DNA from: an uncultured Candidatus Saccharibacteria bacterium
Lineage (GTDB): Bacteria > Patescibacteriota > Minisyncoccia > Phycocordibacterales > PALSA-1337
Assembly: GCA_964529025.1 (NCBI GenBank)
Contig: CAZGUZ010000002.1
Location: 6,885 to 70,884 of the forward strand
Reading direction: 5' to 3'
DNA: 64,000 nt
Position numbers and translations under genes: made by a program. Below are positions 20,457 through 48,534 of the stretch, one piece after another (within the stretch, counting starts at the first letter, position 1; every line of letters starts with the position of its first letter). The notes under the pieces were generated by a model that was given only the letters and a program-made list of their open reading frames with translations, was not told where the DNA came from and did not search any database.

Positions 20457-23400
20457 TTATTTTTGTTCTGTAGTGCTGCCTGAAAAGTTTCCTGTTGATT
20501 TAATTTCGGTACCAGTGTTAATACGCAATATATACCAAGCTATAAGCCCAAGACCAAGTATTACAAATACAACAACAACGATTGTTAGAGCATGTGGATA
20601 CTGAACAGTAAAAGGAACCTTGGGTGGTACTGGCGCCATATACTCGGCATTAACTTTAACATCACCTAAATATGCTCGTACAACTTCTTGAGCCGAGATA
20701 AAACGTGCTAATTCTTGAGTGTCGTAGTTTGGAGCAAGTGCTCGTGGGTTTCCGTATACAAGTTCATAATTACCCGATACTGAGCCATCAAAAATCAAAG
20801 AACCGAGTGGTCCTTTTACACGCAATGTTTTACCAAAATCAAGTGGAGCACTATCGCCATTTGCAATAACTATTTTAATGTATCGAGCTACTACCGGAGA
20901 AAATTCAATAGTATTAATTGATCCTACAAATGTCTGGCTGCGGAGCGAATATAAACGGCCAACACCTGCCTGACTGTAGTCTTTTCCATCAACTGAAGTT
21001 AACACTGTTGCTTGGCGAGCAAAGTTACCTTCGCCCAAACTTACACCGATCTCAGAAACATTGTAGAGTCTACCAAGATCAGCAGTAACAACTGATGCTT
21101 TTGTCTTTGGATCAAGCGCCACAGTTTGTTCTACTGTATGAGTATATGTTCGAGGAATTACACTTTCTGCAGACGATTCGATTCTTACTCCATCAATTAT
21201 AAGTGCACCCTCAGTACCAGCAACAATCTCTATCTTAAGATAACGACTTGTCATCTTAGGAAGACTCACTGTTGTATATGCTTGTCGTACACCTCCAGAA
21301 ATATTTTCTTGGAAAGAATAAATATATCCTGCATCACTTACCAATCTCCACCCTGCACTATCTATACCCAGCTGAGCATCGGCAGCATATACCTTAACCT
21401 GTCGATTAAAATTATTATTGCGAACTTTGAGTGTTATACCCGAATAAACAGAATCTGTCCCGACATCAAGCAGAGCAAATGTATTTCCATCTCGAGAAGA
21501 TGTATTGAGAAGTTTTGCTTGTACTTCATCTGTTGCAAAAGTTGTTCGGTGCACAACTGCATACGAAACCTCTTCTATACCATTGCGTACAATACGAATT
21601 GATGAACCTTGTGGGTCTACACCAGTTACTGATTCAGGAATTACAACCTCAACAAAAGGTTGAGTGCTATTTGCTCCGTTATATTCAATATCTTGTGAAT
21701 ACTGCCACATTTGTGGCTCATATGCAGCCTGCGCAGCAGCTCCAAAGAGAGCTATACCGAGCACAAGAGCAGCTGTTGTTCCAATGAGGCGATCTTTGTA
21801 TTTTGCATATACGAATGATGCTATAAGAGCAAGTGCTCCAACACCAATTGTTGCCACTATTTTATAGATTGGACCGAGTGACCATACCCGAGCAATGACA
21901 AGAACCATGGTAAATACAAAGAGGACGAGGCCGAGTTTTCGTGGACCGGCAACTCGCTTTACAAAACCTACGAGCGTTAAGAATGCTGCATAAATTGCGT
22001 AGAAGATATAGATAATAGTATTTGCTGTATTACCAAGTTTCTCTGCAAGTTTATTGGCTTCTGCATAGGCCTCTTCTTGTACATTATCTGCACTTCTACC
22101 GCTATACATAAGTGCTGTTTGAGCTTGATTTGAAGCTCTATCATATGCAGCACTTGCCAAATATGAGTAGAACTTAGTTACCTGTGAAGTTACCGTAAGC
22201 AAGAAGAATACGTTTGCCACAACAAAGAATATGGTAATACCTCGCTTTTGTATTTCTTTTGTAATGCTTCCGCTGCGATAGTAAATGAAAGCAATAATAC
22301 CAGCAATGACAGTTGTGAGCATCATCGCAAAGAATCCTGTATTGAGGATTGGAACAAACGGTTTTGATGGATTAAACAATGTCCATTCATTAATGAGGAT
22401 AGAGCCGGCTCCAAGTGCAAATACAATTGCTCCCATAACCTGGAATCCACGATCTTGAATACGTGAAGCAAGATAGTACAAAACAAGAGATTCAATAACC
22501 CAAGCTACGCCGACCCAAACACCATCAAACTGCAATTGCACAGCAACAGTAAGGAATGTTGCCATAATTCCTGCCATAACAATTGATACATACACCTTTC
22601 CTTGAGTTACGGTGTGTGCAATATATGCTGCAATTCCAGCATGAAGAGCTCCGAGTACCGCACCAATTCCAAGGTAATCAGAATATTCTTCTACAAACAA
22701 GATGTACATAGTGACTGCCCCAAAGAAATAAGCGAGCGTTGCTAGAACAATACCTGTTTTATCATACTCACTTTGTGCCCGATTCATGAGTGCAATTCCC
22801 ATTCCTACAAACATTGTTGTCCAAAGGAGTGCAAATACAGCAACAATTGCCAACAGAGTATTACTGTACTCAGTTACATACCAAGAACTAAATGCAAGAG
22901 CAATGCCAATTGCGGGTAAATATGCCAAGTATGTCCAACCCCTTCTCAAAATAACTGCGGAAATTCCAATTGCCGCAATCGTAATGTATGCTGCCACACC
23001 AATGAAACTCGTAGTCTGAAGATCGAAAATAAGTGGAGCAAGGAAAGCGCCAATACTTGCAATGACAAGGAGTGATTGTGCTCGTAGAACCGTACTTACA
23101 ATACATACTACCGCTGTAATTACAATGAATCCCGCATAGGCGGCCGACATTGGAATAAGCTGATAAAAATCATAGGCTGCATACACTGAAAAATACAGTA
23201 TTGTTGCACCTCCACCCATAAGTACCGCTCCATATTCTTGATACTTTGCATACAAGTAATGACCTAGAGCAAATATACCCGCTCCACCAACTAAACCAAG
23301 CATGATTCTTCCTGCTTCGCCAATCCAATTATTATCAAAAGCATATTTCAAGAAGAATATAGCACCGAGCACAACTGCGCCAATACCGATTCTACCCAAA

Positions 23401-23762
23401 ATAACTCCAGCCGATTCTTCTTTATGAACTTCTACTTGTTGCGCCTGTGGTTGCGGTGCAGCAGTATTTGCATATGGAGCATAAGAAGCGTGTGGATTAT
23501 AACCACTTGCTGTTTTAGGAGCAATTGGAGGAATGAGTGGATCAGGCCTTACTGCACTTGGTGTTGGCTGTGCAGTATTTGACGAAGACTGAACAGTATT
23601 TGTCTGTGTATTTACCTGCACAGTTTGTTCCGGCATCTGCCGAGAAGTCTGATTTAAACGCTCAAAAGCGCGAACATCTTTTTCAAGAATAGTAATTCTG
23701 TGCGATTGTCGCATAAGAGCGATAATGAAAACTACACCTCCAATCAAAAAAATAAAATCCAT
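20457..23762 (-). CDS. 1101-aa polytopic membrane protein (>20 TM) with a ~400-aa extracytoplasmic C-terminal domain and a C-terminal TM anchor
   Basis: Highly hydrophobic repeated helices occupy residues ~120-700. A Q/P-rich linker lies near the N-terminus. It is possibly DUF2339-like, but the family assignment is uncertain. Confidence 0.55.
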   Translation of the reverse strand: MDFIFLIGGVVFIIALMRQSHRITILEKDVRAFERLNQTSRQMPEQTVQVNTQTNTVQSSSNTAQPTPSAVRPDPLIPPIAPKTASGYNPHASYAPYANTAAPQPQAQQVEVHKEESAGVILGRIGIGAVVLGAIFFLKYAFDNNWIGEAGRIMLGLVGGAGIFALGHYLYAKYQEYGAVLMGGGATILYFSVYAAYDFYQLIPMSAAYAGFIVITAVVCIVSTVLRAQSLLVIASIGAFLAPLIFDLQTTSFIGVAAYITIAAIGISAVILRRGWTYLAYLPAIGIALAFSSWYVTEYSNTLLAIVAVFALLWTTMFVGMGIALMNRAQSEYDKTGIVLATLAYFFGAVTMYILFVEEYSDYLGIGAVLGALHAGIAAYIAHTVTQGKVYVSIVMAGIMATFLTVAVQLQFDGVWVGVAWVIESLVLYYLASRIQDRGFQVMGAIVFALGAGSILINEWTLFNPSKPFVPILNTGFFAMMLTTVIAGIIAFIYYRSGSITKEIQKRGITIFFVVANVFFLLTVTSQVTKFYSYLASAAYDRASNQAQTALMYSGRSADNVQEEAYAEANKLAEKLGNTANTIIYIFYAIYAAFLTLVGFVKRVAGPRKLGLVLFVFTMVLVIARVWSLGPIYKIVATIGVGALALIASFVYAKYKDRLIGTTAALVLGIALFGAAAQAAYEPQMWQYSQDIEYNGANSTQPFVEVVIPESVTGVDPQGSSIRIVRNGIEEVSYAVVHRTTFATDEVQAKLLNTSSRDGNTFALLDVGTDSVYSGITLKVRNNNFNRQVKVYAADAQLGIDSAGWRLVSDAGYIYSFQENISGGVRQAYTTVSLPKMTSRYLKIEIVAGTEGALIIDGVRIESSAESVIPRTYTHTVEQTVALDPKTKASVVTADLGRLYNVSEIGVSLGEGNFARQATVLTSVDGKDYSQAGVGRLYSLRSQTFVGSINTIEFSPVVARYIKIVIANGDSAPLDFGKTLRVKGPLGSLIFDGSVSGNYELVYGNPRALAPNYDTQELARFISAQEVVRAYLGDVKVNAEYMAPVPPKVPFTVQYPHALTIVVVVFVILGLGLIAWYILRINTGTEIKSTGNFSGSTTEQK

Positions 23763-26596: not shown

Positions 26597-29500
26597 TTAT
26601 CGTGAATTCAATATCTTGCGAGTATTTACTCCGACATATCCTCGCTGATCCAAACCATTTTTCTTTTGGAGTTCAATAACTGCTGCTTTAGTTTTTTCTC
26701 CATAATATCCAGTTACAGGACCTGCATAAACACCGAGTTCAATGAGTCGCTTTTGAAGCTCTTCTACTTCAGAATTCTCCATGCCGAATTCCAAAAAGTT
26801 TTTAAACTCAAATCGAGCACTCTGCTGTGGAATTTGCGGAACCACTTGTGGCACAGTCTGGGACTCAATGTTTTGAGGTGCTGGTACTGAAACTGGGTTA
26901 GAATCTCCTGAAATAATAGTATTGAGCAATTCGCGAGTTAATGGACCAACTGTACCTACACTTGGTAAGCCGTATTGCTTTTGCAATTCCCGTACACCGG
27001 CCAGAGTTTTTATTCCAAAGAATCCTGTTGGTGGCACATCTATCATTCCCCTTTCAAAAAGAATTGCTTGAAGCTGTCGAACTTCGGTACCGATAGAACC
27101 AACACTAAGTTGTTGTGTGAATGTTCGTGGATTATTAGATGATATTCCCTGAGAAGAATTTTGCTGACTTGTATTTGGTAGCACAGTTACAGCTGGGGTC
27201 TGCACTGATGCTGGAGTTCTTCCTACATACGTTCTACTTGATCCGCCACCGCGACGCGAAGATCTCGCGGTTGGCGTGGCTGGCGCTTCTACGGCTGGTG
27301 CAATTTGTGTTGTAAATGTCTCAATTGAAGACGTAGCTTCATTCGCATATGCATCTAAGCTTAATACTCGATAGTAGTATGTTGTACTTGCAATAAGACT
27401 CGACAAAGTTACGCTATGTGATGTCACCAACGAAGAGCCAAGTGTCGACAAAGAACCTAGACTTAATGTTGTTCCGTATTCAACCTGCGAATCCGAAGCC
27501 TCATCAGTCGTCCAAGTAATGAGAGCAGCTGTCGAACTCGTACTTGTCGCATTAACACTACTTATAATTGGACTCGTAAGATCTGCCGTAAGGTTTAATA
27601 GTGTCGAGACGGTGTTGGCATTTCCTGCTAAATCTGTATATGTAGTTGTGCCTAGGACAAGATTCATTGCACCTTGTGCAACCGGTGCCACATTAAATGT
27701 GTACACACTTTGAGAAGTTGTAGCAAATGACCCCACAGTTCCGTTTGTCACTGAGATATCATGTATTCCAAAAGTATATATATCACTTACACCCGTAACA
27801 GTGACAGTTGTTCCCGAAGATCCAACGGTACTCTGCCCAGCAGTAAGAGCAGCAGTTGGAGCTGTAGTATCAACAGTAACTGTTGTTGCACTTGAAGTTG
27901 CACTATAATCTGATCCAACTTGTTGCACTGCCGAAATTGCATAACTACCATCAGATAATGCTGATGAAGTAATTGTCCAAGTACCACCAGATTCTGAAGC
28001 AGAGCCAATGAGCGTACTACCCCCTTGATACAAATAGACCGTTGCAGAGGTTGATGCTGTACCCGTAAATGTTGGAGTCGTATCATTTGTAACTCGGTCA
28101 GAATTTGAAACCCCGGAATCAGAGGCCGAAGAAAGTGTCGGTGCAGCAAGTGTAGCTACAATTGCTTGAGTAGATGTTCCAGCGAGCGTTGTAATTGTTG
28201 TTCCACTTGATGTTGCAGTATTACCTGATGCATCCACTGAGACCACTCGGACATAGTACAAAGTACTTGTTGCAAGATCACCCACGGTAATATCATGCGA
28301 CGTGACCAAAGAAGGATTAAGTGCGGAAAGTGTTCCATAGCTCAAAGTTGTACCGTACTCCACTCGAGATGTAGCAGCCTCATCAGTTGTCCATGTAACT
28401 CTAATATTTGTTGTTGCTGTACTTGTAGCAGAAAGACTTGAGACAACTGGCGGTGTCGTATCAGCAACCTCACCCGTACCCACTACTGCCGAGTTTGTTG
28501 TTCCTGAACCTGTAACTGTCTGCACCTTGTAGAAATATTGTTGGCCAGTCTGAACATCGAAAGTGTCAACAAAACTTTCAGTGGTTGAGCTTAAATATTC
28601 AGAAACTACATTCTGCGTAAATATATTATTTGTTGCGCGCACTAAATACACATCGGCAGAAGTTGGCTCATTATTGTCCCATGTAACTGTCACAGTATTA
28701 CCCACTCGATTCACCGCAACATTAGTTGCAGCATCTGGACCATCGGTTGTTGGGAATTCAGTATCAAGATCCCAACTTGATTTCCATGGAATAGTCATAA
28801 TGGTACCTGTACCCATAGTAATTGGTAGCCAAACATGACGAGAACCGTACAATGAACCATTGTTTACATCGGTATAATTAAATCTATCTCCCATATAGAT
28901 ATAACTTCCTGCTCGGCCTGGAATTTCAAGAATATGTGTTGTCTGTGATCTAAAAGCAAGTGTATAGTCTTCTTCTGCACTTGGAAGGAATGGGTTAACA
29001 CGAGTTGACCATGTGCCAAGTACACCAGTTGTCGATGTTGCATACGTGTTCATGTTTGGAGCCCAACCTGAAAGTCCCGAGGTCACCAAATAGTGAATAC
29101 CGTTTCTGATAAACATAGCTGGGGCTTCGCGACCATTGTGGTTAGCTGGGTTTAAGAATGTTTCTGTAGTACCAAGATAATCATCGGTGAGCAAAGAGAT
29201 AAAGAACTTTGTATTGATACCGTTTGAATAAAGCACATATGCTTTACCATCAGCATCCTTAAAGAGGTTCATGTCGTTGAGACCTTCTCCATTTGGATTG
29301 TATGTTGTAGAAAAAATGGTAAATGGACCCGTTGGATTATCTCCGTATGCAATAAAAGCTCGAGAGTTTGGATAACTAATCACATTGTGACCCCACATAA
29401 CATACTTACTTGTTGTGGCATTGTAAATCACGTGTGGTCGCTCAATAATATGCAATCGTCCTCCGTAAACAATTGGTTGTTCTTCGGTCCAGTTCAAAAG

Positions 29501-32500
29501 ATCGTTTGATGAATATACCGAAACGCCCACAGCTTCGATTTCTGGACTATCAGTATTCATAATTTGACCGTACCAATAGTACTTACCGCGTGTGTACAAA
29601 ATGTTTCCATCGTGTGACTCGATAAGGCGACTGTTCATGTCGTACCAATCACCCGCTGGGAAAAATCTTCGCTCAATAGAAATTCGAGCAGTCACTGAAG
29701 GTTCAGACACAAAGTAGTCCCCACCAACATTACTTACAGCAATAGCAATAACTTGTGTTGTTGTAGCGACTCTAAAGGGACCTGTATACAATTGCGTTGT
29801 ACCTTGTGGCATTCCACCACTAAACACCGGTGTTGTACCATCGGTTGTGTAGTACAAAGTTGCATCAGTTGTTCGACTCGATAGTCGTACACGAATTGGG
29901 TCACGATAATATCCTCCTCCTGGAGAAACTCGTGGTGCTACAGGAATAAACGGTGACGATGTTCCTGCAAGACCGATGATTTTAAATTCTGCAAGGTTTG
30001 CACTTGAATAGTCAGCGGCAACTAATCGTAGATAACGGTAAGCCTGGCCGCCACTATCAACAGGAACTTCTGTCACATGACGCTGTGGAAAGTATGGTGG
30101 TGTATATGGTGTTGTACTTGCAACCGTATGAATAACTGTCCAAGGACCAGTCGTTGAACTTACGTTAGATCCTTGAAGCTGAACTCCATATACTCGGGCT
30201 GTATATCCACGACGTGGAGCTAAGCCAATTGCTGTAGGAATAAATGCTGCTTTGGCGTCAACGCTGGCATAAGCACCAGAAACTGTTGCAGAGTCCCACC
30301 ATGTTTCAACATTGTTATCGTAGAGCTTTGCATAGGTGTTTCCACTGTTAAGATAACTTCCTGCGGTTCCGTTTTGATATGCGGGGTGAACATATAACTG
30401 AACCTCTCCATCAACATCAGCCAAAGGACATGCTGCTGTCGTAAATGAACGAGTTGTACCGTAGCGCGTACCGGCGACGTTTGTTGCATATGCACGATAG
30501 AAATATGTTGCTCCACATGCTAAATCACCTGTAACGGTCGTTGTTGCAAAGTCACCAACTCCAGACGTGCCTAAAATTGTTGATGTCGCGCCGAACGTTG
30601 TTGTGATACCGTATGCAATTCCTCGAGCTGTCGTACTTGCTCCACCATCAGATGTTACTGATCCTGCAAGTAATGCTCTAAAAGCATATACCGTTGTTGA
30701 GGCTAAAGTTGTTACTGTTGGTGCAACCGAGTTAAGTACAGTTACGTTAACTGCAGTCGATGTTGCTCTATTACCTGCAATATCTTGAACTGTGGCCGAA
30801 AGTGTGTGTGCGCCATCTGTTGTTGTGAGAGAGTTCCATGTAATTGAATATGGCGATGTTGTACCCGATGAACCAATAGGAGAACCATCGAGATTAAACT
30901 GAACTGACGTTACCCGAACATTGTCAGTTGATGTTGCTGTAAGTGTAACTGAACTGCCGACAAGTGTTGCCCCAGCAGCTGGAGCTGTCATAGTAACAGC
31001 TGGTGCAATTACATCCGCAAGAACTGTTATTGATGTTGTAGCCGAACTTAACGGGTCTGTAATAATTAAAGTTCCCGTTGCTGAACCAGCATACAATACA
31101 ATTGATGCTGATAAAGAGTCAGCAACACTTTGTGACTGAATTGCCGCACCGTTTCCACCAGTTACCGTAAATGTTGGTGTTCCAGGAGTTCCTGCTGTCC
31201 AACCCGTAGCATTACCTGTCAAAGAAATGCTGGATGTGGCACCTTGCATTATTGTTGTTGTGCTTGGCGTAATCGTAATAAGCGAGTTATTAACATTAAC
31301 CGTAATTGTAGTTGAGGCCACATTACTTGATGCATCTGTCGCAATGGCTTTAATGGTGTGTGTACCGTCTGAGTAACCTGTAGTATTCCACGTAACACTA
31401 TGGGGCGACGTTCCACCAGCACTGCCAACTTGCACCCCATCAACCTGAAGAACAATTGAGTTGAGCAAAACATCATCAGTTGATGAAGCTGTAATTGTTA
31501 CACTACTACCAAGAACTGTAGCATCCTGAAGTGGTGCTGTAATTTCTACCTGAGGAGCAGTTGTATCAGCAGAAAGTGAAAAATCGGCAGTTGCGGTATT
31601 TGATGTCGAAGAACCTGCCGCTGTTATTGTTCGAATTCGATAAAAATAACTTGTATCATTGGTGATATCTGGATCATTCAAAGATAATGTTGTTGAGCCA
31701 AGCAACAATGCTCGCAAATTTTGTGTAAAGTTTATATTTGTAGCTCGCTCAAGGTAGTTATCAAAGGCAGTACCGTTGGTGCTCCATGAAAGATCTACCG
31801 AGAGGCCATTTTTAACACCCACCAAACTTGAAACAGCCGTTGGTGGGGTCGCTGTAACGAAGAATGAATCGAGGTTCCAACTTGAATACCACGAAATAGA
31901 CATAGTATTTACTGTTGGAAACGTAATTGGCAGCCATACAAACCTTGAGTTATACAGTGAACCTGTTGCATATGCTGAGTTATCAAAGCGATCACCTATA
32001 TATACAAAACCATCTGTTCTACCTTCAACTTTAAGTACTTCACTTGGCTGTGAAGCAAAGCCGGTCGAATTATCAAAAAGACTACTACTCTGAAATGGAT
32101 TCACTGGATACGAGTACGTACCGAGTGGGGACGAAGACGTCGAGTACTTTACTAGTGTATGTGCAAAAGTTGCACTGGTACTTGCTGTCATCAAATAATA
32201 CACATCACCGTACCTAAACATTACCGGCGTTGCTCTGTTTGCAAGCGCGGCCACGTTAACAAAACTACCTTGAGGCGACAAATAGTCGCTGCTCAATTGA
32301 GCAACAACGATACGTGTTGTGTCCGAAGAAGCATGAGCAACGTAACCGGTTCCGTTATTATCTACAAACAAGTCGAGATCGTTATTTCCAAAGCCACTAA
32401 TATCAAGGCGTGTATTATAAACCCTGAAAGGACCGTACGGTTTTGACGATGTGGCAACCATAGCTCTACCCGCAGAAGCATTTCGAGCCCACATAACATA

Positions 32501-33589
32501 GGTACTACTTGCAGCATTGTAAATCACACGAGGGCGAGTATATCTAATACTTGAAGAAGCTATCATAAAGCCTTCATACTTCCAGTTTAAAAGATCGTTT
32601 GATGAATATGCGACGATTCCACCAAGTTCGACTTCTGGCGTACTATTGTTATACGACTCTCCATACCAATAGTATTTACCGTCCAAATAACTGATACCTC
32701 CCGTGTGTGCATCAATAAGCTGGCCACCATTTACATTCCTCCACTCATTTCCCGGGGTAAAGTTGGGTGCAATATAAAAATATGCAGGATCAGAAATTTC
32801 TGAAGAATTTGTGCCACCAAGCACCGCTATTGCTTTAATAGTTGTAGTTGCCGTACTCGTAATTAAGAATGGGTATGTATACGCCTGCGTGGTTCCCTGT
32901 GGTACTCCTGCTGTAACAACAGGGTTTGTTCCGTCAGTTGTATAGTACAAAGAAGCATCCGTTGTAAGACTTGCTAAGGTTACCAATGTTGATGTTGCAT
33001 AACGACCACCATGAGGAGTAATCGTTGGTGTTACAGGCGTGTACGGAGTACTACTTGAAGCAATACCAATCATGCGCAACTCTGCCACCGAACCATAAAA
33101 GTTATTCTGAGTTAATACTCGATAGTAGCGGTAATACTGGTTTCCCGTATCAATAGAAATTTCATTGAGCTGCTTTTGCGGATAATACGGTGGCATACTT
33201 GGTACCGTATAAATTGTTGTCCATGGTCCGGTTGATGAACTTACATTGGCACCTTGAACTATTGCCCCTACAAGTCGCGGAACATAGCCCAAACGCGGTG
33301 CAATTCTAATTTTTGTTACTTTTGCAGCCGACAAAAGATCAAGGCCTACGTATCCTTGCGCAACCGAAGAGTCCCAGTGAGTTGTAAGGTCACTATCAAA
33401 TACCTTAGCAATCGTGTTGCCGTTATTACCAAAACTTCCCGCCGTACCAATCTGATACTGTGAGGCAATACTAAATTGAACTTCGCCCGTAGCGGCATGG
33501 ACCAGAGTCGGAGTTGTAGCAAAACAAAGAGCACTGTAGAGTAGCGCAACAAAAAATACTGGGGTCAGCTTGTTCACCAGACGATACAT
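26597..33589 (-). CDS. Giant (~2330-aa) secreted multidomain protein: 2x [F5/8-type C (discoidin) + GH43-like 5-bladed beta-propeller], FN3/Ig-like repeats, 2 C-terminal peptidoglycan-binding (PG_binding_1) domains
   Basis: Signal peptide at MYRLVNKLTPVFFVALLY. Discoidin-like segments read NTIAKVFDSDLTTHWDS and NTYAKLYDNNVETWWDS. Propeller signatures read DGKYYWYGE..SSNDLLNWK and RGKYYWYGQ..SSNDLLNWT. The C-terminus has two LQ..L...G.....G.FG..T..AV..LQ PG-binding repeats. Confidence 0.8.
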   Translation of the reverse strand: MYRLVNKLTPVFFVALLYSALCFATTPTLVHAATGEVQFSIASQYQIGTAGSFGNNGNTIAKVFDSDLTTHWDSSVAQGYVGLDLLSAAKVTKIRIAPRLGYVPRLVGAIVQGANVSSSTGPWTTIYTVPSMPPYYPQKQLNEISIDTGNQYYRYYRVLTQNNFYGSVAELRMIGIASSSTPYTPVTPTITPHGGRYATSTLVTLASLTTDASLYYTTDGTNPVVTAGVPQGTTQAYTYPFLITSTATTTIKAIAVLGGTNSSEISDPAYFYIAPNFTPGNEWRNVNGGQLIDAHTGGISYLDGKYYWYGESYNNSTPEVELGGIVAYSSNDLLNWKYEGFMIASSSIRYTRPRVIYNAASSTYVMWARNASAGRAMVATSSKPYGPFRVYNTRLDISGFGNNDLDLFVDNNGTGYVAHASSDTTRIVVAQLSSDYLSPQGSFVNVAALANRATPVMFRYGDVYYLMTASTSATFAHTLVKYSTSSSPLGTYSYPVNPFQSSSLFDNSTGFASQPSEVLKVEGRTDGFVYIGDRFDNSAYATGSLYNSRFVWLPITFPTVNTMSISWYSSWNLDSFFVTATPPTAVSSLVGVKNGLSVDLSWSTNGTAFDNYLERATNINFTQNLRALLLGSTTLSLNDPDITNDTSYFYRIRTITAAGSSTSNTATADFSLSADTTAPQVEITAPLQDATVLGSSVTITASSTDDVLLNSIVLQVDGVQVGSAGGTSPHSVTWNTTGYSDGTHTIKAIATDASSNVASTTITVNVNNSLITITPSTTTIMQGATSSISLTGNATGWTAGTPGTPTFTVTGGNGAAIQSQSVADSLSASIVLYAGSATGTLIITDPLSSATTSITVLADVIAPAVTMTAPAAGATLVGSSVTLTATSTDNVRVTSVQFNLDGSPIGSSGTTSPYSITWNSLTTTDGAHTLSATVQDIAGNRATSTAVNVTVLNSVAPTVTTLASTTVYAFRALLAGSVTSDGGASTTARGIAYGITTTFGATSTILGTSGVGDFATTTVTGDLACGATYFYRAYATNVAGTRYGTTRSFTTAACPLADVDGEVQLYVHPAYQNGTAGSYLNSGNTYAKLYDNNVETWWDSATVSGAYASVDAKAAFIPTAIGLAPRRGYTARVYGVQLQGSNVSSTTGPWTVIHTVASTTPYTPPYFPQRHVTEVPVDSGGQAYRYLRLVAADYSSANLAEFKIIGLAGTSSPFIPVAPRVSPGGGYYRDPIRVRLSSRTTDATLYYTTDGTTPVFSGGMPQGTTQLYTGPFRVATTTQVIAIAVSNVGGDYFVSEPSVTARISIERRFFPAGDWYDMNSRLIESHDGNILYTRGKYYWYGQIMNTDSPEIEAVGVSVYSSNDLLNWTEEQPIVYGGRLHIIERPHVIYNATTSKYVMWGHNVISYPNSRAFIAYGDNPTGPFTIFSTTYNPNGEGLNDMNLFKDADGKAYVLYSNGINTKFFISLLTDDYLGTTETFLNPANHNGREAPAMFIRNGIHYLVTSGLSGWAPNMNTYATSTTGVLGTWSTRVNPFLPSAEEDYTLAFRSQTTHILEIPGRAGSYIYMGDRFNYTDVNNGSLYGSRHVWLPITMGTGTIMTIPWKSSWDLDTEFPTTDGPDAATNVAVNRVGNTVTVTWDNNEPTSADVYLVRATNNIFTQNVVSEYLSSTTESFVDTFDVQTGQQYFYKVQTVTGSGTTNSAVVGTGEVADTTPPVVSSLSATSTATTNIRVTWTTDEAATSRVEYGTTLSYGTLSALNPSLVTSHDITVGDLATSTLYYVRVVSVDASGNTATSSGTTITTLAGTSTQAIVATLAAPTLSSASDSGVSNSDRVTNDTTPTFTGTASTSATVYLYQGGSTLIGSASESGGTWTITSSALSDGSYAISAVQQVGSDYSATSSATTVTVDTTAPTAALTAGQSTVGSSGTTVTVTGVSDIYTFGIHDISVTNGTVGSFATTSQSVYTFNVAPVAQGAMNLVLGTTTYTDLAGNANTVSTLLNLTADLTSPIISSVNATSTSSTAALITWTTDEASDSQVEYGTTLSLGSLSTLGSSLVTSHSVTLSSLIASTTYYYRVLSLDAYANEATSSIETFTTQIAPAVEAPATPTARSSRRGGGSSRTYVGRTPASVQTPAVTVLPNTSQQNSSQGISSNNPRTFTQQLSVGSIGTEVRQLQAILFERGMIDVPPTGFFGIKTLAGVRELQKQYGLPSVGTVGPLTRELLNTIISGDSNPVSVPAPQNIESQTVPQVVPQIPQQSARFEFKNFLEFGMENSEVEELQKRLIELGVYAGPVTGYYGEKTKAAVIELQKKNGLDQRGYVGVNTRKILNSR

Positions 33590-33625
33590 ACATACAGTAT
33601 AACACCGGCAAAAGCTCAACGGGGC

Positions 33626-39155: not shown

Positions 39156-39659
39156 ATGATAACAGAGAAAGAAGTAAAAGATTTGTGCAGAACTGCACTA
39201 GGCTTGCACATGATAAGTGTGGGACGCTTGCCTGACCCCTATAGATACAGCTCAAGGGGGATCCGTCAGCACGGAGCTCAAACAGCAGGCGCCATCGTTA
39301 CCCTTGTGGTGATCTGGCTTGTCTTTCGAGCCGGCCTTGCACCACAAATGTTGTGTTTCATTTGTGGGATGATTGGGTTAGTCTATGCGGGCTACAACCT
39401 TTTCTGCCTGCTCTCTGAAACCATGAGTCGCCGAGCCGCGTATCGTGCTTGGCACGGCATGGTCGAGCTTAAGCACTTACTTATGCGGCACAAGCTCGAC
39501 TCTGAGTTCACGGCAAGCGTGTCCCGTGAAGAAATCCAGAAAGTTTTTCGAGAGTGGAGAGAACAGCACAGGCAAGACACAAGAACTCGCGCCAAGATAA
39601 AAGCAGACTTTGGCGACCACTTCGAAGTTCTTGTTCAAGAACTGTTCCCTCCCAGGTAG
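39156..39659 (+). CDS. Hypothetical 2-TM protein encoded by a GC-rich segment with its own terminator
   Basis: The ORF has clearly higher GC than the flanks and is followed by the hairpin ccggcgccttgtgcgccgg plus T-run. Confidence 0.5.
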   Translation: MITEKEVKDLCRTALGLHMISVGRLPDPYRYSSRGIRQHGAQTAGAIVTLVVIWLVFRAGLAPQMLCFICGMIGLVYAGYNLFCLLSETMSRRAAYRAWHGMVELKHLLMRHKLDSEFTASVSREEIQKVFREWREQHRQDTRTRAKIKADFGDHFEVLVQELFPPR

Positions 39660-39685
39660 GACGATTTATTCGTCTTACTCAACAC

Positions 39686-39713
39686 ACCGGCGCCTTGTGC
39701 GCCGGCTTTTTTT
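39686..39713 (+). terminator. Rho-independent terminator after 39156..39659
   Basis: The sequence caccggcgccttgtgcgccggcttttttta forms a hairpin with a T-run. Confidence 0.65.
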
Positions 39714-39737
39714 ATTTATATACAATATACTGCAAAC

Positions 39738-39764
39738 AAAAAAACCACTTGCGTGGTTTTTTTT
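39738..39764 (-). terminator. Rho-independent terminator (minus-strand sense; A-run/T-run flanked, possibly bidirectional)
   Basis: The sequence aaaaaaaccacttgcgtggtttttttt forms a hairpin and ends the minus-strand gene run 40302..39769. Confidence 0.6.
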
Positions 39765-39768
39765 ACTA

Positions 39769-39861
39769 CTATCTTCGCTTTGTAGTCTTCTTTGCTTTCT
39801 TAGTTGTCTTCTTTGCAACTTTCTTCTTAGAAGTCTTTTTTGAAACTTTTTTCTTTGCCAT
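39769..39861 (-). CDS. Possible 30-aa lysine-rich peptide MAKKKVSKKTSKKKVAKKTTKKAKKTTKRR (not in ORF track; speculative)
   Basis: An ATG-started ORF ending 5 nt before the terminator hairpin. No SD was found, so coding status is uncertain. Confidence 0.2.
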   Translation of the reverse strand: MAKKKVSKKTSKKKVAKKTTKKAKKTTKRR

Positions 39862-39993
39862 GTGGAGGAAATTAAATTTATAATGTAAACCTCTGTAAGT
39901 ATAGCACCTACAAAGTTTTTAAATATATTTTTTTACAAAAAAAGTGGACAACTCAAGAAAAATATTTGTGTTAAATTATTTTTTTCTAAAACT

Positions 39994-40275
39994 TTACCCT
40001 TGCGCTAACTCTAACTTTTTATTTCGTGATAATTTTTTTATTTCTGCTTCGCGTTTAAGTGCGCTACTTCTATTTTTTGTTGGCTCTATGAAAAGTATCT
40101 TTTGTGGTGGAGCTGATCGTGTAAAACGAGCACCTTTCCCTGCTACGTGTTGTGTATAGCGCCGTTCAACATTTGTAGTTATACCCGTATAAATTTGATT
40201 ACGTGCGCAAAGAAGCATGTATACAAAGTATTTATCTTTACTCGCTTTTTTGCCAACTTTTTTACTTGTACTCAT
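39994..40275 (-). CDS. GIY-YIG nuclease-domain protein (small, UPF0213-like)
   Basis: Contains KYFVYMLLCARNQIYTGITTNVERRYTQH, which matches the GIY-(10-11)-YIG and Arg/Glu core of GIY-YIG domains. Confidence 0.75.
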   Translation of the reverse strand: MSTSKKVGKKASKDKYFVYMLLCARNQIYTGITTNVERRYTQHVAGKGARFTRSAPPQKILFIEPTKNRSSALKREAEIKKLSRNKKLELAQG

Positions 40276-40301
40276 GTACTTATCTTAGAAACGTATATGT
40301 A

Positions 40302-42752
40302 TTATTCGCTTATCCCTTGTAATTGCTGAGCTTTTTTATATGATAGCGGACCAAAGGTTCCAGTTCCTGTTGTGTGGCCAAGTGGGGCAAGTATGTCTGC
40401 ACTATAAGCCTCTTGATAACGCTTAACAGCTAAGTATGTTCGCACTGAATATAAATCAGTTTCATTTCCCAAAGAGCCTGGACCAGAGCGAGCAAGGTTA
40501 AATCCTAAACAATTCAAATACTTTTGTAGTCTTTGTACATCCTCACCTTTCATTCCTGAACGAAGTGTGCGATTAAGTGCGCCAAGCTTACATGAGGCAC
40601 TTACATTATGCTGAACATTTTGCTCAACACTAGGTTGCGCCACACTTTGTGCTACTTTTTGCACACTAGCCACTTGTGGCCATTCTTGCTGCAAGCGATC
40701 TGCTTCTTGTGACAAACCGAGGCGATTAAGATTTTGTATACGCTCGCGAACCGACGTCACTGAACGACTTCCTGTTTGTGCAGCTGACACTGGCGCTGTG
40801 CCGTACAAAGCAAAAACTGAAAAGTGAGGCGCTGTGCAACTTACTTGATTAAGACCAGTATTTACTGAACATGCATCAAGTTGCGACCAAGTTCCCGATC
40901 GATAGTGGTAGAGCGTAATTGTATTTTCATCGAGACCCTGAACATCGGCATCTGTATACGTATACGTAATTGTCACAGGAGTATTGAACGATTCAAGAAT
41001 GGTTGTGCCGTCGATAAGAGCGGTGACTTCAAATACAACAAGAGCGGCGCGCTCCTTATCAGCAGTAGCGTCACCAATTCCCGACAAAACATCTGCAGCT
41101 GGCAAAGCTTTGATCTGAATAACGATAGAAGATGACGATGCTGTAACAAACTCTGGTACCTCTACAGTAAACGTTCTGCCATCATCAACAAACTCTATTG
41201 TTGATGTAGCATCGGTACTTACCGTCGTCGTAGTTGCTGCCGTTGGAGTCTGACTTGCAGGACAACCAAGAGTTGTAATTGCCGTTGTCGATGTTGCGGT
41301 ATTGCCCGTTGCGTCTCTTGATACAAGATCGAGTGTGTATGCAATACACGGAACTAATGAAGAAAGAGTAACTTCATGTTCTGTCACACGCGTAGAAGTA
41401 TTAATTTCTGGTGTTGAAGAGCTCACCCCAGGACCAACTTGAAACCAAACCTTAGAAGAAGCGAGCTCATTTGTATTCCATGTCACAATTGCCGAAGTTG
41501 TAGCAATTTCAGTTGCCACATTTGTTATTACTGGAGCTGTTGTATCTGATGTTGTTAAACGCCATTCTGAGCTTTCGGTAATTCCAGCAAAGTTATTACT
41601 CGAAGCATCACGCAAAGCGCCGTTCGGAATAATAACGTAGAGTTGAGTACCCTCAGGTAAGTTTACTGTTGGATTAATGGTAATTTGTGTTGTACCTCCA
41701 CCTGTTACTGCTCCACTTGTTACATCGATAGTTTCTACAGTACTGTCGTCTGATACTTTCTTAATAAGAATATTACCCGAGTTTGGACTTACTGCTTTAC
41801 TCAAAGTAATAACCAAATTTGTTGAAGAACTTACGAGGGTTGCGCCATTCACCGGCGACAGTGTTGCCACAGCAGGAACATCAGCAGTTACCACAGAAAT
41901 TGTTGTAGCAACTACGGTAGGCAGATTCCCCGGTGTACCAAATTCTGCAACGTATCCAGAAAGATTATTACTTGTACAATTTAGGTCGTTCCATTTAGTG
42001 GTAGAAATATAAAATTGAATACAATCTTCACCAGGAGTACCATTCAGCCAGTCATTAGGCTCACCCGAGCTCCAGTTTGCATATTGTCCAGGAGCAGCCG
42101 AACCACCAGAGGCACCTGTCCAGAACAATGTACCCGATTCAGGTCCTGTAACCCAACGCCACTGCCCTTCGGTTCCTTCATCACTACCACCAACCCAACC
42201 ATCACCCTGCAAACGTGCAGCCACGAAATCATTCTCTGCCTGAGAAGTAATTGTTGCCAAGTAGCCACTTACACCGTATGCAGACTGTGTTGCAGCTTGA
42301 GTCCGTGCATTAAGAGCATTAATACTACCCGTTATGAATTTATACAAATGACCATTGTCAGGAAAAAATACTTCCCCAGGTTCAACCAAAGAGACTTCAA
42401 GTGTGTCAGTGCCGGTGCTTGCGCGCGAATATTTAAGTGTAGCTAAAGCGTTATTAATGTTTGCTACAGTTCCATTAAAACTCACTGTTGTTCCAGAACT
42501 TGGACCGCTAAAAGTAAGGCCCGTAGTAGAAGTCATCGATAGAGTTCCGTATGTTGAACGCAAACGAACCGGCGTTGTTGAAGCAGAAGGTCCAACAATT
42601 TGAAAACCAGTAATTGATGTAGCCACACTTGGTGTCGTTGTTGCATTGTCACCACTTTGAAGTGTAAGGGCCGCTTGTGCATATGAAGCATACCCCAGGA
42701 GGAGCATACTATAAAATACTGTACTCAGAAGAAAGCCGAGTCCTTTTTTCAT
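40302..42752 (-). CDS. Secreted surface protein: C-type lectin domain (EPN and WND motifs) + Ig-like repeats + C-terminal peptidoglycan-binding domain
   Basis: Signal peptide at the N-terminus. The CTLD reads GYLATITSQAENDF...WVGGSDEGTEGQWRWV...YANWSSGEPNDWL...EDCIQF...KWNDLNC. The C-terminus carries a GEDVQRLQKYLNCLGF PG_binding_1-like repeat. Confidence 0.75.
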   Translation of the reverse strand: MKKGLGFLLSTVFYSMLLLGYASYAQAALTLQSGDNATTTPSVATSITGFQIVGPSASTTPVRLRSTYGTLSMTSTTGLTFSGPSSGTTVSFNGTVANINNALATLKYSRASTGTDTLEVSLVEPGEVFFPDNGHLYKFITGSINALNARTQAATQSAYGVSGYLATITSQAENDFVAARLQGDGWVGGSDEGTEGQWRWVTGPESGTLFWTGASGGSAAPGQYANWSSGEPNDWLNGTPGEDCIQFYISTTKWNDLNCTSNNLSGYVAEFGTPGNLPTVVATTISVVTADVPAVATLSPVNGATLVSSSTNLVITLSKAVSPNSGNILIKKVSDDSTVETIDVTSGAVTGGGTTQITINPTVNLPEGTQLYVIIPNGALRDASSNNFAGITESSEWRLTTSDTTAPVITNVATEIATTSAIVTWNTNELASSKVWFQVGPGVSSSTPEINTSTRVTEHEVTLSSLVPCIAYTLDLVSRDATGNTATSTTAITTLGCPASQTPTAATTTTVSTDATSTIEFVDDGRTFTVEVPEFVTASSSSIVIQIKALPAADVLSGIGDATADKERAALVVFEVTALIDGTTILESFNTPVTITYTYTDADVQGLDENTITLYHYRSGTWSQLDACSVNTGLNQVSCTAPHFSVFALYGTAPVSAAQTGSRSVTSVRERIQNLNRLGLSQEADRLQQEWPQVASVQKVAQSVAQPSVEQNVQHNVSASCKLGALNRTLRSGMKGEDVQRLQKYLNCLGFNLARSGPGSLGNETDLYSVRTYLAVKRYQEAYSADILAPLGHTTGTGTFGPLSYKKAQQLQGISE

Positions 42753-42819
42753 AAGTATAGTATACCACCAGTTAAACTTCTTTTGTGCTAGAGTTGTTCA
42801 ACTTTTCGCATATATCGCT

Positions 42820-43563
42820 CTATCTTCTTCCGCGAATCTTACTAATAAGTCGGAGTACTTCGATATACAACCAGACAAGAGTAACAAGGAGTCCGAAACT
42901 TGCATACCACTCCATGTATTTTACAAAGCCTTGCTCGACACTTCGTTCAATAAAGTCAAAATCAAGAATCAAATTAAGAGCAGCAATTCCTGCTACAAAT
43001 AATGTAAATAGGATTCCGTAAATTGAATTGCTATTTATAAGTGGAAGGTCGCCACCAAAGAACATGAAAACAAGGTTAAGTACGTAGTAAATTGCAATAC
43101 CTGCTGTGGCAAAAATTATTACCTTTGCAAACCTTTGCGTTACACGAATTAACTTAAATTTATATGCAAAGAGCATTCCTACAAAAATACTCACAGTTAC
43201 GAGCACAGCTTGTACGACAATACCTTCGTACTGACTTTCAAAAATTCGTGAGATGATTCCCAAAACACACCCTTCAACAATAGCGTAAATTGGAGCAAGT
43301 ACTGGTGCCGTATGCTTTTTCCAAATAATAATCAAAGCAAGGATGAGACCTACAATGATCGATGCGAATAAAACAATAATTCCATATGCATGATGCGCAA
43401 ATGTCCAACTCGTGATTCCTGAGGCTATAACCAAAGCAAGGAGTATTGCTGACTTTGATATAACACCATTAAGTGTCATTTTTTCACCTTCGAGAGTTGC
43501 GACTTCTTGATTAAAAGCTTTTTCTGTCAAAACAGGGCTTTGTGTCTGATTCGTATTGTTCAT
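42820..43563 (-). CDS. Bax-inhibitor-1/YccA-family membrane protein (7 TM)
   Basis: A 248-aa protein starting at the internal Met MNNTNQ of the longer tracked ORF, with 7 hydrophobic helices and a charged C-terminus (KIRGRR) typical of the BI-1 family. Confidence 0.65.
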   Translation of the reverse strand: MNNTNQTQSPVLTEKAFNQEVATLEGEKMTLNGVISKSAILLALVIASGITSWTFAHHAYGIIVLFASIIVGLILALIIIWKKHTAPVLAPIYAIVEGCVLGIISRIFESQYEGIVVQAVLVTVSIFVGMLFAYKFKLIRVTQRFAKVIIFATAGIAIYYVLNLVFMFFGGDLPLINSNSIYGILFTLFVAGIAALNLILDFDFIERSVEQGFVKYMEWYASFGLLVTLVWLYIEVLRLISKIRGRR

Positions 43564-43597
43564 ATACTTAGTATATACGAGCCAACTATATACAACA

Positions 43598-43625
43598 AAC
43601 CGCCCCGAAGGGCGGTCTTTTTGAT
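43598..43625. terminator. Terminator-like GC hairpin (accgccc-cgaa-gggcggt) with flanking T-runs
   Basis: The sequence aaccgccccgaagggcggtcttttt sits between two minus-strand genes. Confidence 0.45.
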
Positions 43626-43666
43626 TGGGCATATAGTGATGTTTGGCATCACTACGCCCGAGCGAG

Positions 43667-46398: not shown

Positions 46399-48534
46399 TT
46401 ATCTAACTTCGAGTGACAATGTTCCTATTGTATATGTTCCGTGAACGCCTGTACAATGCACACTAATATCATACGTACCTGGTTCAACACTCGAAGTGGT
46501 TGATACTATTCCAGTATCTTGATCAATCGTAATATTTGAATAGCTATCTGATGATCCACCTGAAATAGTAGCGATTGAACAGTTACTGTAGTAACCAATG
46601 ACACCGGTACTTGTTTCGCCAGCTTGAATTGTTTGTGTTGAATCTGCATATGGCGAAGCATCAAAACCGCTCAAGACATAAGGAGTATTTACTGCAATTG
46701 ATCGCCAAATTGTCCCGATACCCGTCAATACAATATCGGCATGCGACGACGTCCAACCAGAAACCCCATTAGCTGCTTCAGAGTAGCCTCCTGAAATCGA
46801 AGCTGAAAAACCTCCGCTTCCTGTAAAGCCTTGATCGGATAAACCTGCTCCAGCTGTATAGACATTACTTGCCGACACTCCAGTGAACGACGTTCCGAAT
46901 ATACCACCTGAACTTGACCCTCCCATGTCTCCGGTTGTGTATGAATTAGAAACTGTGCTGAGCGAAGCATTTGAACCAACAATACCACCACCGCCCGAAG
47001 ATATTGCACCCGTACTATAAGAATCGCTCACCGCTGCAGAGTTTGAACCCAAGCCAACAATTCCTCCACCATTTATACCGATAGCACCTGTCGAATAACA
47101 TCTTGAAACACTTACCATTTCGCTATTTGCACCAACAATTCCGCCTCCACCGGTACTTATATCACCGCTACTACTACAATATTCAAACTCATTACCGTTA
47201 GAGCCCTTTCCAAAGTAGCGCTGCCCTAGCCATCCAGCATTTGTTGCAAGGGTACTACTAACTTCATTCACAGCAATATTTGATACCGTAACATTATTGT
47301 ATCCATCAGCAACCGCTGTTCCGTTTTGAATAAAACCAGGGTAATTACTTACAGTATGTACCGTAATAATTGTTGGTTGTGTAGAGTTGCCGTTTTCACC
47401 TCTAATTTCAATATCATCAGAACCGATAATGATGTAAGAGTTTGCTGAACTTATCGTAAAATCACCCACAAGATGTACAACAAGAGTTCCTGAACCACCA
47501 TTTTGTATTGTTGGGAACAACGTTTGTGTCCAACTATTTCCATCGCCGCTAAACTCAAGTTCACTACCGTTTTGACGAAGATATAAAGTATCAACACCCA
47601 CGAGCGTTGCCCCAACACCTGCAGCTATAACTGCACTTTCAAAACCAACCGTACACGAACCAGTAATTGTCCCTGTTGTATATGTTGAATGCACCCATGT
47701 TCCCGTTGGGCATGTACCACTAACAGTACCTAAACCGTACCCTAATCCAGACTCTGCGGTGAATGACGCTGTTGAACCATGATTAACAGTTCGCGCTCCA
47801 CTCGGTGAGATTCCAATACCACTCAATATTACGGTGTACGAATTAATTGAAGCATTAAAGATTACTGAACATGAAGCATTAATTGCTCCTGTGGTATATA
47901 TCGAACCGTTCCATGTTCCAGCTGGACAGGTTCCACCAACACTTATGGTATATCCCGTTGGAGCGGTAACTGTATATGATTCAGTTGCACCAAAAGAAGT
48001 AATACGCGGTGATAGTGAACTTACTGTTACATTACTACCCGCACTCGACAATACAGCATATGAATTTGAAGAGCCTCGGCCGCCCCTTGATTTACGCACC
48101 TTTGCTGTTGTTGTAGCTTCATCTTCTATAACTTCTTGAACGGGAACAATTTGCTGCTCTGCAATAAGTGAATTGTTAACAAAAGTACGCGTTGCCGAAA
48201 AGAAATTCCCTGTAGGGTATATTAAACCGAGCGGTGCTAATATTTGTTGCGAGAACTGCTGTTGGAGTCGCATTACAGCTGCCCGAGTTTTTGCTCCAAA
48301 AAATTGTGTCTCTTGCCCGAGTGAACCTTCACCTGATTCGGCAACATTAAAACCGTGAGTATTAAGGTATTTTTGAAGGCGCTCTACATCAATACCATTC
48401 GATCCTGGTTTAAGATCTTGCGTAAAAAGCTCTGGAGCTTGAGTCTGGGCTTGCGCTGCGTATGGGCTCAATTGTAAACAAAATACACCGAGCGCAATCA
48501 AACAAGTGTTCCCTAACGTACGCAAAATATTCAT
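46399..48534 (-). CDS. Secreted protein with N-terminal peptidoglycan-binding domain and Gly/Ser-rich beta-helix-like repeats
   Basis: A signal peptide is followed by GIDVERLQKYLNTHGFNV...AVMRLQQQF (PG_binding_1). Repeated GGGGIVG.NS / GGGIVGLGSN / SGGIFGTSF units follow. Confidence 0.65.
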   Translation of the reverse strand: MNILRTLGNTCLIALGVFCLQLSPYAAQAQTQAPELFTQDLKPGSNGIDVERLQKYLNTHGFNVAESGEGSLGQETQFFGAKTRAAVMRLQQQFSQQILAPLGLIYPTGNFFSATRTFVNNSLIAEQQIVPVQEVIEDEATTTAKVRKSRGGRGSSNSYAVLSSAGSNVTVSSLSPRITSFGATESYTVTAPTGYTISVGGTCPAGTWNGSIYTTGAINASCSVIFNASINSYTVILSGIGISPSGARTVNHGSTASFTAESGLGYGLGTVSGTCPTGTWVHSTYTTGTITGSCTVGFESAVIAAGVGATLVGVDTLYLRQNGSELEFSGDGNSWTQTLFPTIQNGGSGTLVVHLVGDFTISSANSYIIIGSDDIEIRGENGNSTQPTIITVHTVSNYPGFIQNGTAVADGYNNVTVSNIAVNEVSSTLATNAGWLGQRYFGKGSNGNEFEYCSSSGDISTGGGGIVGANSEMVSVSRCYSTGAIGINGGGIVGLGSNSAAVSDSYSTGAISSGGGGIVGSNASLSTVSNSYTTGDMGGSSSGGIFGTSFTGVSASNVYTAGAGLSDQGFTGSGGFSASISGGYSEAANGVSGWTSSHADIVLTGIGTIWRSIAVNTPYVLSGFDASPYADSTQTIQAGETSTGVIGYYSNCSIATISGGSSDSYSNITIDQDTGIVSTTSSVEPGTYDISVHCTGVHGTYTIGTLSLEVR

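Follow-up and report, generated by a model that had tools for sequence, protein, structure and literature searches.

A gene on the minus strand of a 64,000-nucleotide stretch of DNA (contig CAZGUZ010000002.1, positions 6,885 to 70,884; hereafter the window) encodes an 816-residue protein which is probably a surface lectin of Patescibacteria, secreted, rod-like and associated with the wall, with the two small genes that follow it on the same strand standing as independent neighbours. The listing of open reading frames (ORFs) places all three where the original prediction, made from the letters of the DNA alone, had put them: the lectin coding sequence at 40302..42752, a gene for a 93-residue GIY-YIG protein at 39994..40275, and a lysine-rich micro-ORF of 30 codons at 39769..39861. 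Identification of the first draws on its Pfam architecture, on at least 582 homologous clusters and on an AlphaFold2 model with a mean predicted local distance difference test score (pLDDT) of 89.9. That model, built on a 119-sequence alignment, is a predicted and not a solved structure.

The domain order of the 816-residue protein was established to be signal peptide, N-terminal beta-sandwich, C-type lectin-like domain (CTLD), three immunoglobulin (Ig)- or FN3-like spacers, flexible linker and PG_binding_1. Pfam profiles place Lectin_C at residues 161-263 (39.7 bits, cut-off 22.6), Big_5 at residues 293-401 (39.5 bits) and PG_binding_1 (PF01471) at residues 736-783 (29.6 bits, cut-off 23), and a match to fn3 at residues 413-491 stays under the cut-off (E 0.013). 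The HMMER check proposed with the original prediction thus returned Lectin_C and PG_binding_1 above their cut-offs, and also GIY-YIG (PF01541) at 63.5 bits in the 93-residue neighbour. NCBIfam provided no model for the lectin, the GIY-YIG protein or the micro-ORF, the lectin giving only sub-threshold matches to PGF-pre-PGF and SleB.

At the N-terminus, residues 1-27 (42672..42752; MKKGLGFLLSTVFYSMLLLGYASYAQA, with cleavage before an alanine) read as a signal peptide, having a basic N-terminus, a hydrophobic helix and an AQA-A cleavage motif; residues 2-20 of this region are helical in the AlphaFold2 model. The beta-sandwich that follows (residues 28-125; 42378..42671) is modelled as strands and one helix, and has no Pfam model; no other region of the lectin family is as well conserved, and it includes a near-invariant block NATTTPNVATSITGFQIVG...GTVANIN.AL.TL.Y. 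The CTLD occupies residues 128-272 (41937..42371), as judged from Lectin_C, PDB matches and Foldseek. The Ig-like spacers that had been predicted are present, both as Pfam Big_5 and as all-beta domains of the model: spacer 1 (residues 282-402; 41547..41909) is the Big_5 domain, all-beta in the model; spacer 2 (residues 409-495; 41268..41528) is FN3-like, from the sub-cut-off fn3 match and from Foldseek; and spacer 3 (residues 505-652; 40797..41240) is a beta-sandwich of modelled strands with conserved C628 and C639. Foldseek comparison with the PDB matched this stalk to tandem FN3/Ig arrays. In spacer 2, C469 and C497 are invariant among orthologues, and residues 605-650 of spacer 3 match TIGR04213 (PGF-pre-PGF) weakly (E 0.002, under cut-off). 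The linker (residues 653-727; 40572..40796) is variable, partly disordered and partly helical in model and alignment, its pLDDT dropping under 50 in two stretches (residues 657-666 and 697-718) and its length differing among orthologues. The PG_binding_1 domain (residues 728-811; 40320..40571), recognised by Pfam and in the model, forms the helical bundle expected of it (helices 737-748, 770-782 and 802-811, pLDDT above 90), and it also matches a PHROG endolysin wall-binding family weakly. Three conserved intradomain cysteine pairs, together with the putative signal peptide, fit an extracellular protein. Many orthologues finish in G-(L/V/A)-W-W after PG_binding_1, an ending that the window protein and its nearest relatives do not have.

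The lectin domain carries a complete set of residues for the principal Ca2+/sugar site of C-type lectins. A phmmer search of the PDB gave 45 distinct CTLD sequences at E <=0.01, all of them animal proteins and among them CLEC4F (E 3e-9), CD23, CL-P1, MBP-A and mincle. In the model the domain has the alpha/beta double-loop fold of CTLDs, with pLDDT mostly above 90 over residues 128-272, and Foldseek against the PDB aligned it with the aggrecan CTLD (1tdq_B, target-normalised TM-score (TMt) 0.82) and with human MBP (1hup, TMt 0.67, rmsd 3.0). The motifs quoted in the original prediction are all in place: GWVGGSDEGTEGQWRWV, the EPN triad E231-P232-N233 (42054..42062), E242-D243-C244 (42021..42029), which supplies the Ca2+-ligand glutamate and cysteine C2, and the WND triad W254-N255-D256 with C259, which is cysteine C3 (41976..41993). 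These align respectively with EPN, GENC and WNDAFC of CD23. Invariance was judged first over 34 and then over 119 orthologues at 45-61% identity, and all three motifs are invariant there, as are the core tryptophans W186, W198 and W200. All five side-chain ligands of the site are present, namely the Glu and Asn of EPN, E242, and the Asn and Asp of WND. The claim of a CTLD with complete EPN and WND is thus borne out by Pfam, by PDB matches, by AlphaFold2 and Foldseek, and by invariance in the 119 orthologues; assignment to a CTLD-like fold devoid of Ca2+-site residues, which would have refuted the prediction, did not occur, the domain matching Lectin_C with its site residues invariant.

In animal CTLDs, a change from EPN to QPD switches specificity from mannose-type to galactose-type. 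In three Saccharimonadia proteins (L040, L043 and L045), QPD stands where EPN would, with the remainder of the domain conserved, and by analogy with the animal proteins this alternation would argue for a working sugar site. The alternative that the CTLD is a scaffold which binds no sugar, whether an intimin/invasin-like binder of protein or mineral, a domain of antifreeze type, or the hypervariable ligand-binding domain of a diversity-generating retroelement (DGR), appears improbable to us. Many CTLDs do bind no sugar, the C1-C4 disulfide is absent here, and genomes of the candidate phyla radiation (CPR) carry DGRs whose targets have the C-type lectin fold (PMC11661182, PMC8144416). Against this, the full EPN, Glu and WND set is invariant, when CTLDs that bind no sugar are typically without it; the best matches are true Ca2+-dependent carbohydrate-recognition domains (CRDs; CLEC4F, CD23, MBP-A and mincle); relatives alternate between EPN and QPD; and the binding-site region is invariant, not hypervariable. 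A DGR target was considered specifically and rejected, since no template/variable repeat pair, and no direct repeat overlapping the CTLD, occurs in window 30000-52000 and the site does not vary; the reverse transcriptase was not searched for.

Several points count against a fully canonical, own-wall-anchored sugar binder. The domain has just two cysteines, C244 and C259, which are the C2-C3 pair, and the C1-C4 disulfide expected of CTLDs is missing: on our reading of the alignment, the C1 and C4 positions hold alanine (in ...QSAYG... and ...GYVAEF). Compact or non-vertebrate CTLDs without this disulfide are known, and its absence weakens the description 'fully canonical' but not membership of the CTLD family. 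A six-residue insertion, DWLNGT, specific to the sub-clade of the window protein, separates EPN from EDC, so that sugar specificity is not readable from EPN alone, and the loop just after EPN is modelled with less confidence (a block of pLDDT about 67). The PG_binding_1 score is modest, and the module could bind the wall of another cell. Lastly, the predicted ligand and location of the lectin are read from sequence and a model.

With these points in view, the favoured role of the protein would be as follows. After export, the C-terminal module would hold it non-covalently on the producer's own peptidoglycan, and the stalk of three spacers would project a head made of the N-domain and the CTLD outwards. 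Via bound Ca2+, in the manner of animal collectins, the head is predicted to bind sugars with equatorial 3- and 4-hydroxy groups, of the mannose, glucose or N-acetylglucosamine type. The most likely target would be surface glycans of the host or partner cell of what is probably an episymbiont, with an environmental polysaccharide as a further possibility; it is the presumed episymbiotic lifestyle of CPR bacteria that makes host or partner glycans the most attractive candidates. Display on the wall had been predicted from the C-terminal PG_binding_1, and the module is not only present but recurs on two other large window proteins of 2340 and 711 residues, which points to a recurrent wall-anchoring module of this organism. 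The former (window 26597-33619, minus strand) bears GH43, Fn3_assoc, Big_7, CHB_HEX_C_1, Big_13 and two C-terminal PG_binding_1 domains; judged by these domains it is clearly extracellular, and would be another wall-anchored, glycan-directed protein. The latter (window 46399-48534, minus strand) has an N-terminal PG_binding_1, and 78-nt periodic internal repeats (46976-47166). A third large protein, of 1101 residues (window 20457-23762, minus strand), combines DUF2339 (membrane), F5/8 type C (discoidin) and DUF3999.

The same neighbourhood bears on the possibility that the lectin serves its own envelope or the cell's nutrition in place of host attachment, tethering glycopolymers of the cell's own wall or S-layer glycans to peptidoglycan, or capturing polysaccharide for wall-anchored glycosidases. 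The 2340-residue protein, with its GH43, chitobiase-C and Ig domains, lies in the same window, and the family identity of 45-61% suits a housekeeping function at least as well as fast-evolving host recognition. On the other side, the lectin gene is present in some close relatives and absent from others at this locus, as would be unusual for an essential part of the envelope, even if a copy elsewhere is possible. On balance we regard an envelope or nutrient role as rather unlikely, though it deserves more weight than a CTLD that binds no sugar.

The family to which the lectin belongs is large. At a homology search threshold of E <=0.001, at least 582 clusters were returned, and the best 120 homologues are 45-96% identical to the query, nearly all covering 78-100% of it with the same Lectin_C, Big_5 and PG_binding_1 domains. 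All named homologues come from metagenome-assembled genomes of Patescibacteria, Paceibacteria or Minisyncoccota, and these labels suggest that the lineage of the lectin gene is Patescibacteria (CPR; Paceibacteria/Parcubacteria-type). Some are already labelled at NCBI as 'lectin-like protein', 'Ig-like domain-containing protein' or 'peptidoglycan-binding protein'. An identical 816-residue protein is encoded on contig JACCDY010059490.1 of GCA_013566075.1, and about 35 loci with full-length orthologues were detected among the species genomes of GTDB. Outside this architecture, the module of N-domain and CTLD is followed by different C-terminal regions in Saccharimonadia, Arcobacteraceae and Burkholderiales. 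The N-domain also occurs on its own, in giant proteins from Planctomycetes and other phyla; large proteins that contain it (L051-L080) come from Planctomycetes, Proteobacteria and Cyanobacteria. A literature search found no paper on the Patescibacteria lectin family; on canonical C-type lectins in CPR bacteria or prokaryotes at large it gave only papers on the C-type-lectin fold of DGR proteins and mentions of concanavalin-type lectins. The protein is thus an ordinary member of a large Patescibacteria family that is annotated in databases and, as far as that search shows, experimentally unstudied, and the statement that such lectins are rare in bacteria was, for Patescibacteria, too strong.

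The original prediction had also joined the lectin, the GIY-YIG gene and the micro-ORF into a conserved trio forming a surface-adhesin operon. That the adhesin, the nuclease and the lysine-rich peptide act together is very improbable, even though the three genes lie on one strand, only 26 nt without a terminator separates the lectin from the GIY-YIG gene, and these two are adjacent in the close relatives L001, L082 and L088 as well. Among 37 orthologous loci from other species (35 from GTDB, searched by tblastn with the neighbours of the window gene, and two from metagenomes), the GIY-YIG gene adjoins the lectin in none, a single locus (L013) having one about 5 kb off, and the lysine-rich micro-ORF occurs in none of the 37. 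When flanking ORFs from 38 loci were clustered all against all, no family occurred in more than seven of them, and those that did recur stood at scattered positions; even L083 and L084, with lectins 60% and 58% identical, have wholly different lectin neighbours. There is therefore no conserved neighbour family. UPF0213 proteins are, besides, widespread as stand-alone genes, and the micro-ORF lies behind a conserved -10 box of its own.

Very close relatives differ at this locus. In L082 the order is 202-aa gene, lectin, GIY-YIG, and in L088 it is BaxI, 202-aa gene, HD-domain gene, lectin, GIY-YIG, micro-ORF; in L085-L087, the order is BaxI, 202-aa gene, GIY-YIG, micro-ORF, and the lectin is missing from the site. 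Among close relatives, then, the lectin comes and goes while the GIY-YIG gene and the micro-ORF remain in place. The adjacency of the three genes is a matter of chance, and the idea of an operon is largely refuted by synteny. Read-through transcription from the lectin into the GIY-YIG gene is possible, with the short gap free of a terminator and the micro-ORF a further 132 nt beyond the GIY-YIG gene, and would be incidental; to judge from the sequence, a promoter-like box of its own precedes the lectin gene, and no operon partner is conserved with it. In the window, the interval between BaxI and GIY-YIG (40276-43632) holds the lectin only; the 202-aa gene found in relatives is alpha/beta-hydrolase-like. 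A convergent gene on the plus strand (39156..39659) encodes a 167-residue protein with two transmembrane helices, which is 30% identical to its counterpart in L085 (4752-5258), where the other flanks are 88-96% identical in nucleotide sequence. This gene is a hypervariable or replaced allele, and the locus is clearly mosaic.

The box in front of the lectin gene is an extended -10-like sequence (TGGTATACT; 42759..42767, minus strand), of putative function, which ends 6 nt before the ATG and suggests a leaderless or very-short-leader mRNA made from its own promoter. A TAnnnT sequence lies 3-14 nt before the start codon in 25 of 50 window genes, against a background of 22% at random positions, and a Shine-Dalgarno (SD)-like motif precedes only 8 of the 50. 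These boxes often read TGnTAnnnT. The pattern suggests that mRNAs in the window are mostly leaderless or short-leadered, and fits the reported loss of the anti-SD motif, which is absent in about half of Parcubacteria (PMC9297842).

The 93-residue protein is an ordinary GIY-YIG protein of UPF0213 type, whose gene happens to adjoin that of the lectin in this lineage without being its partner. A PDB search aligned its residues 13-90 with the UPF0213 structures 1ywl (E 5e-14) and 1zg2 (E 9e-14), which are EF2693 and BH0048, respectively; it resembles both across the whole GIY-YIG domain, with no notable difference. The characteristic GIY-YIG positions are kept, with the two tyrosines (in FVYML and IYTG), the arginine and the glutamate (in REAEIKK), and nuclease activity is putative. 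To our knowledge, the biological role of small UPF0213 GIY-YIG proteins is poorly defined in every organism.

The micro-ORF, which reads MAKKKVSKKTSKKKVAKKTTKKAKKTTKRR and has 15 Lys, 2 Arg and no acidic residue among its 30 codons, would form a separate small transcription unit, unrelated to the lectin, with its own -10 box, leader and terminator. Upstream of it lies an extended -10-like box (TGCTATACT; 39898..39906, minus strand), of inferred function, whose TGnTATACT is conserved in the window, in L085-L087 and in L088 although the sequence on either side varies. The A/U-rich leader (ATTATAAATTTAATTTCCTCCA; 39863..39884, minus strand) is identical in all five of these relatives; a GAGG...CCUC hairpin in the leader region of the micro-ORF is not conserved in L088. 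Downstream, a terminator-like hairpin, A7-CCAC-GCAA-GTGG-U7 (39738..39763, minus strand), is conserved in the relatives, and has an 11-bp stem, a GCAA loop and a U7 tail; the enclosing 46-nt stretch folds at -15.5 kcal/mol (z = -4.9). This is a plausible intrinsic terminator, at the place where one had been predicted, although seven of the base pairs are A-U and only four G-C; the symmetry of its A- and T-tracts suggests possible action on both strands. The near-identical unit of box, leader, ORF and terminator spans window 39735-39906, and L085 4490-4700 and L088 5060-5250. A leader peptide for lysine attenuation was ruled out: no gene of that strand follows the terminator, the next one (39156..39659) being convergent on the plus strand, and no antiterminator pairing was seen.

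The micro-ORF is known only from this narrow clade, where its conservation is unusually high; across the lectin family it is without counterpart. Lack of conservation, which was to refute the original prediction, is thus found in the family, and its opposite in the clade. L085-L087 match the window at 93 of 93 nucleotides, beside a GIY-YIG gene with 92% identity; L088 has a single A to G change (Thr to Ala), and there GIY-YIG, BaxI and lectin each show about 80% identity. None of 30 third-codon positions has changed in the micro-ORF, against 32 of 77 (42%) in the GIY-YIG gene (binomial P about 1e-7). Constraint on the micro-ORF is thus at the nucleotide level, beyond the amino-acid level, and could stem from an RNA function, from extreme selection on the codons of a tiny but strongly expressed gene, from an overlapping plus-strand promoter or from recent recombination. 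The promoter-like site in question, TTGCCA-N18-TATAAT on the plus strand (39855..39884), is near-consensus (11 of 12 positions match), overlaps the leader and the micro-ORF start codon, and is directed, in antisense, towards the 3' end of the GIY-YIG gene.

No relative of the micro-ORF outside this clade came to light in any search. The peptide has no exact match in a collection of 15 billion proteins, and phmmer against 1.84 billion representatives gave no match; a metagenome pattern scan with TCCTCCANATGGCNAARAARAA gave 14 matches and a scan of viral contigs two, all attributable to chance; Pfam, NCBIfam, PHROGs and Rfam returned nothing for it. Rfam 15 applied to the window found only tRNA-Gln, hits in 39650-40020 being all far below the gathering score.

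Most likely, the micro-ORF would encode a polycationic peptide that binds nucleic acid, or would act as RNA. Two facts sit badly with an ordinary peptide gene: the complete lack of synonymous change is not predicted by selection at the amino-acid level alone, and the NCBI annotation of L001 leaves the ORF uncalled, so that its translation is putative. Both speak for the alternative that there is no protein gene here at all and that the unit is a small non-coding RNA, or a DNA element with a plus-strand promoter for an antisense transcript into GIY-YIG. That the only change seen is non-synonymous, that leader and terminator are conserved equally, that the predicted transcript of about 165 nt folds better than shuffled sequences (z = -2.7), and that the plus-strand promoter-like site overlaps the start codon, all point the same way. 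In favour of a peptide, there is a clean ATG...TAG frame after an unstructured A/U-rich leader, the purine-rich body has little structure apart from the terminator, Rfam has no match, the ORF is called as a gene in L086 (JGI), and the Ala/Lys-rich basic extensions of ribosomal protein uS19 reported in Parcubacteria make such a peptide plausible (PMC9297842). The five near-identical copies do not separate coding from non-coding, and an RNA or DNA element is, in our estimate, a serious minority possibility.

In composition and in its KK-x-x-KK periodicity, the putative peptide resembles polycationic Lys/Ala-rich tails such as those of histone H1-like bacterial proteins and the uS19 extension of Parcubacteria (PMC9297842); it differs in being a stand-alone product of 30 residues without detectable homology, so that the likeness is one of composition only. 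It is tempting to go further and to suggest that, in Paceibacteria-type CPR bacteria, a conserved, animal-type Ca2+-dependent CTLD at the distal end of a wall-anchored stalk recognises glycans of host or partner, its sugar specificity set by the EPN/QPD switch known from animal immunity, and that the adjacent 30-codon unit is a new clade-specific element constrained at the nucleotide level, either a small RNA or a polycationic micro-protein (for example, ribosome- or nucleoid-associated); this more ambitious proposal is a tentative one, to which we give somewhat less credence than to the RNA or DNA element taken by itself.

CPR bacteria, or Patescibacteria, account for much of the diversity of bacteria. 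Their presumed way of life is in attachment to other microbes, and few of the molecules of attachment are known. The lectin family offers a concrete candidate, with a head that is predicted to be soluble and well folded, and decades of research on animal lectins inform both its predicted site and its metal dependence. Binding of glycans by the head could show which surface sugars, and hence which kinds of host, are recognised. Conservation of a full EPN/WND Ca2+-sugar site in a bacterial lineage, with alternation of EPN and QPD, also bears on the origin of C-type lectins. The value of the finding is limited in that databases already list many members of the family, under the label 'lectin-like', and in that the odd operon is a chance adjacency.

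Among known systems, the variable proteins of DGRs (Mtd of Bordetella phage, TvpA), which are common in CPR bacteria, likewise place ligand-binding domains of the CTLD superfamily on surface proteins of CPR bacteria and phage. Their sequence families are different ones, they are not known to have EPN/WND Ca2+ sites, and their binding site varies via a template repeat; the site of the window lectin, in contrast, is invariant and is accompanied by no repeat in window 30000-52000. Orthologues in Patescibacteria (such as P0042, P0094, P0014 and P0025) show 45-61% identity along 95-100% of their length and share the Lectin_C, Big_5 and PG_binding_1 domains; the sub-clade of the window protein differs by DWLNGT after EPN and by the lack of the C-terminal G-L-W-W found in many of them. 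With the Ca2+-dependent CRDs of animals (MBP-A/MBL, CL-P1, CD23, CLEC4F and mincle), the window lectin shares a Pfam family, similarity in sequence (E down to 3e-9), the fold (TMt 0.67-0.82), the EPN...E...WND ligands of Ca2+ and sugar, and the C2-C3 cysteine pair. It differs from them in being bacterial, in lacking the C1-C4 disulfide, and in having a longer loop (GPE.G..FW.G..GGS) before EPN. Where the animal collectins have a collagen or coiled-coil neck, the bacterial protein has instead an N-terminal beta-sandwich, Ig/FN3 spacers and a peptidoglycan-binding anchor, which together would present at the cell surface a head for which sugar binding is predicted.

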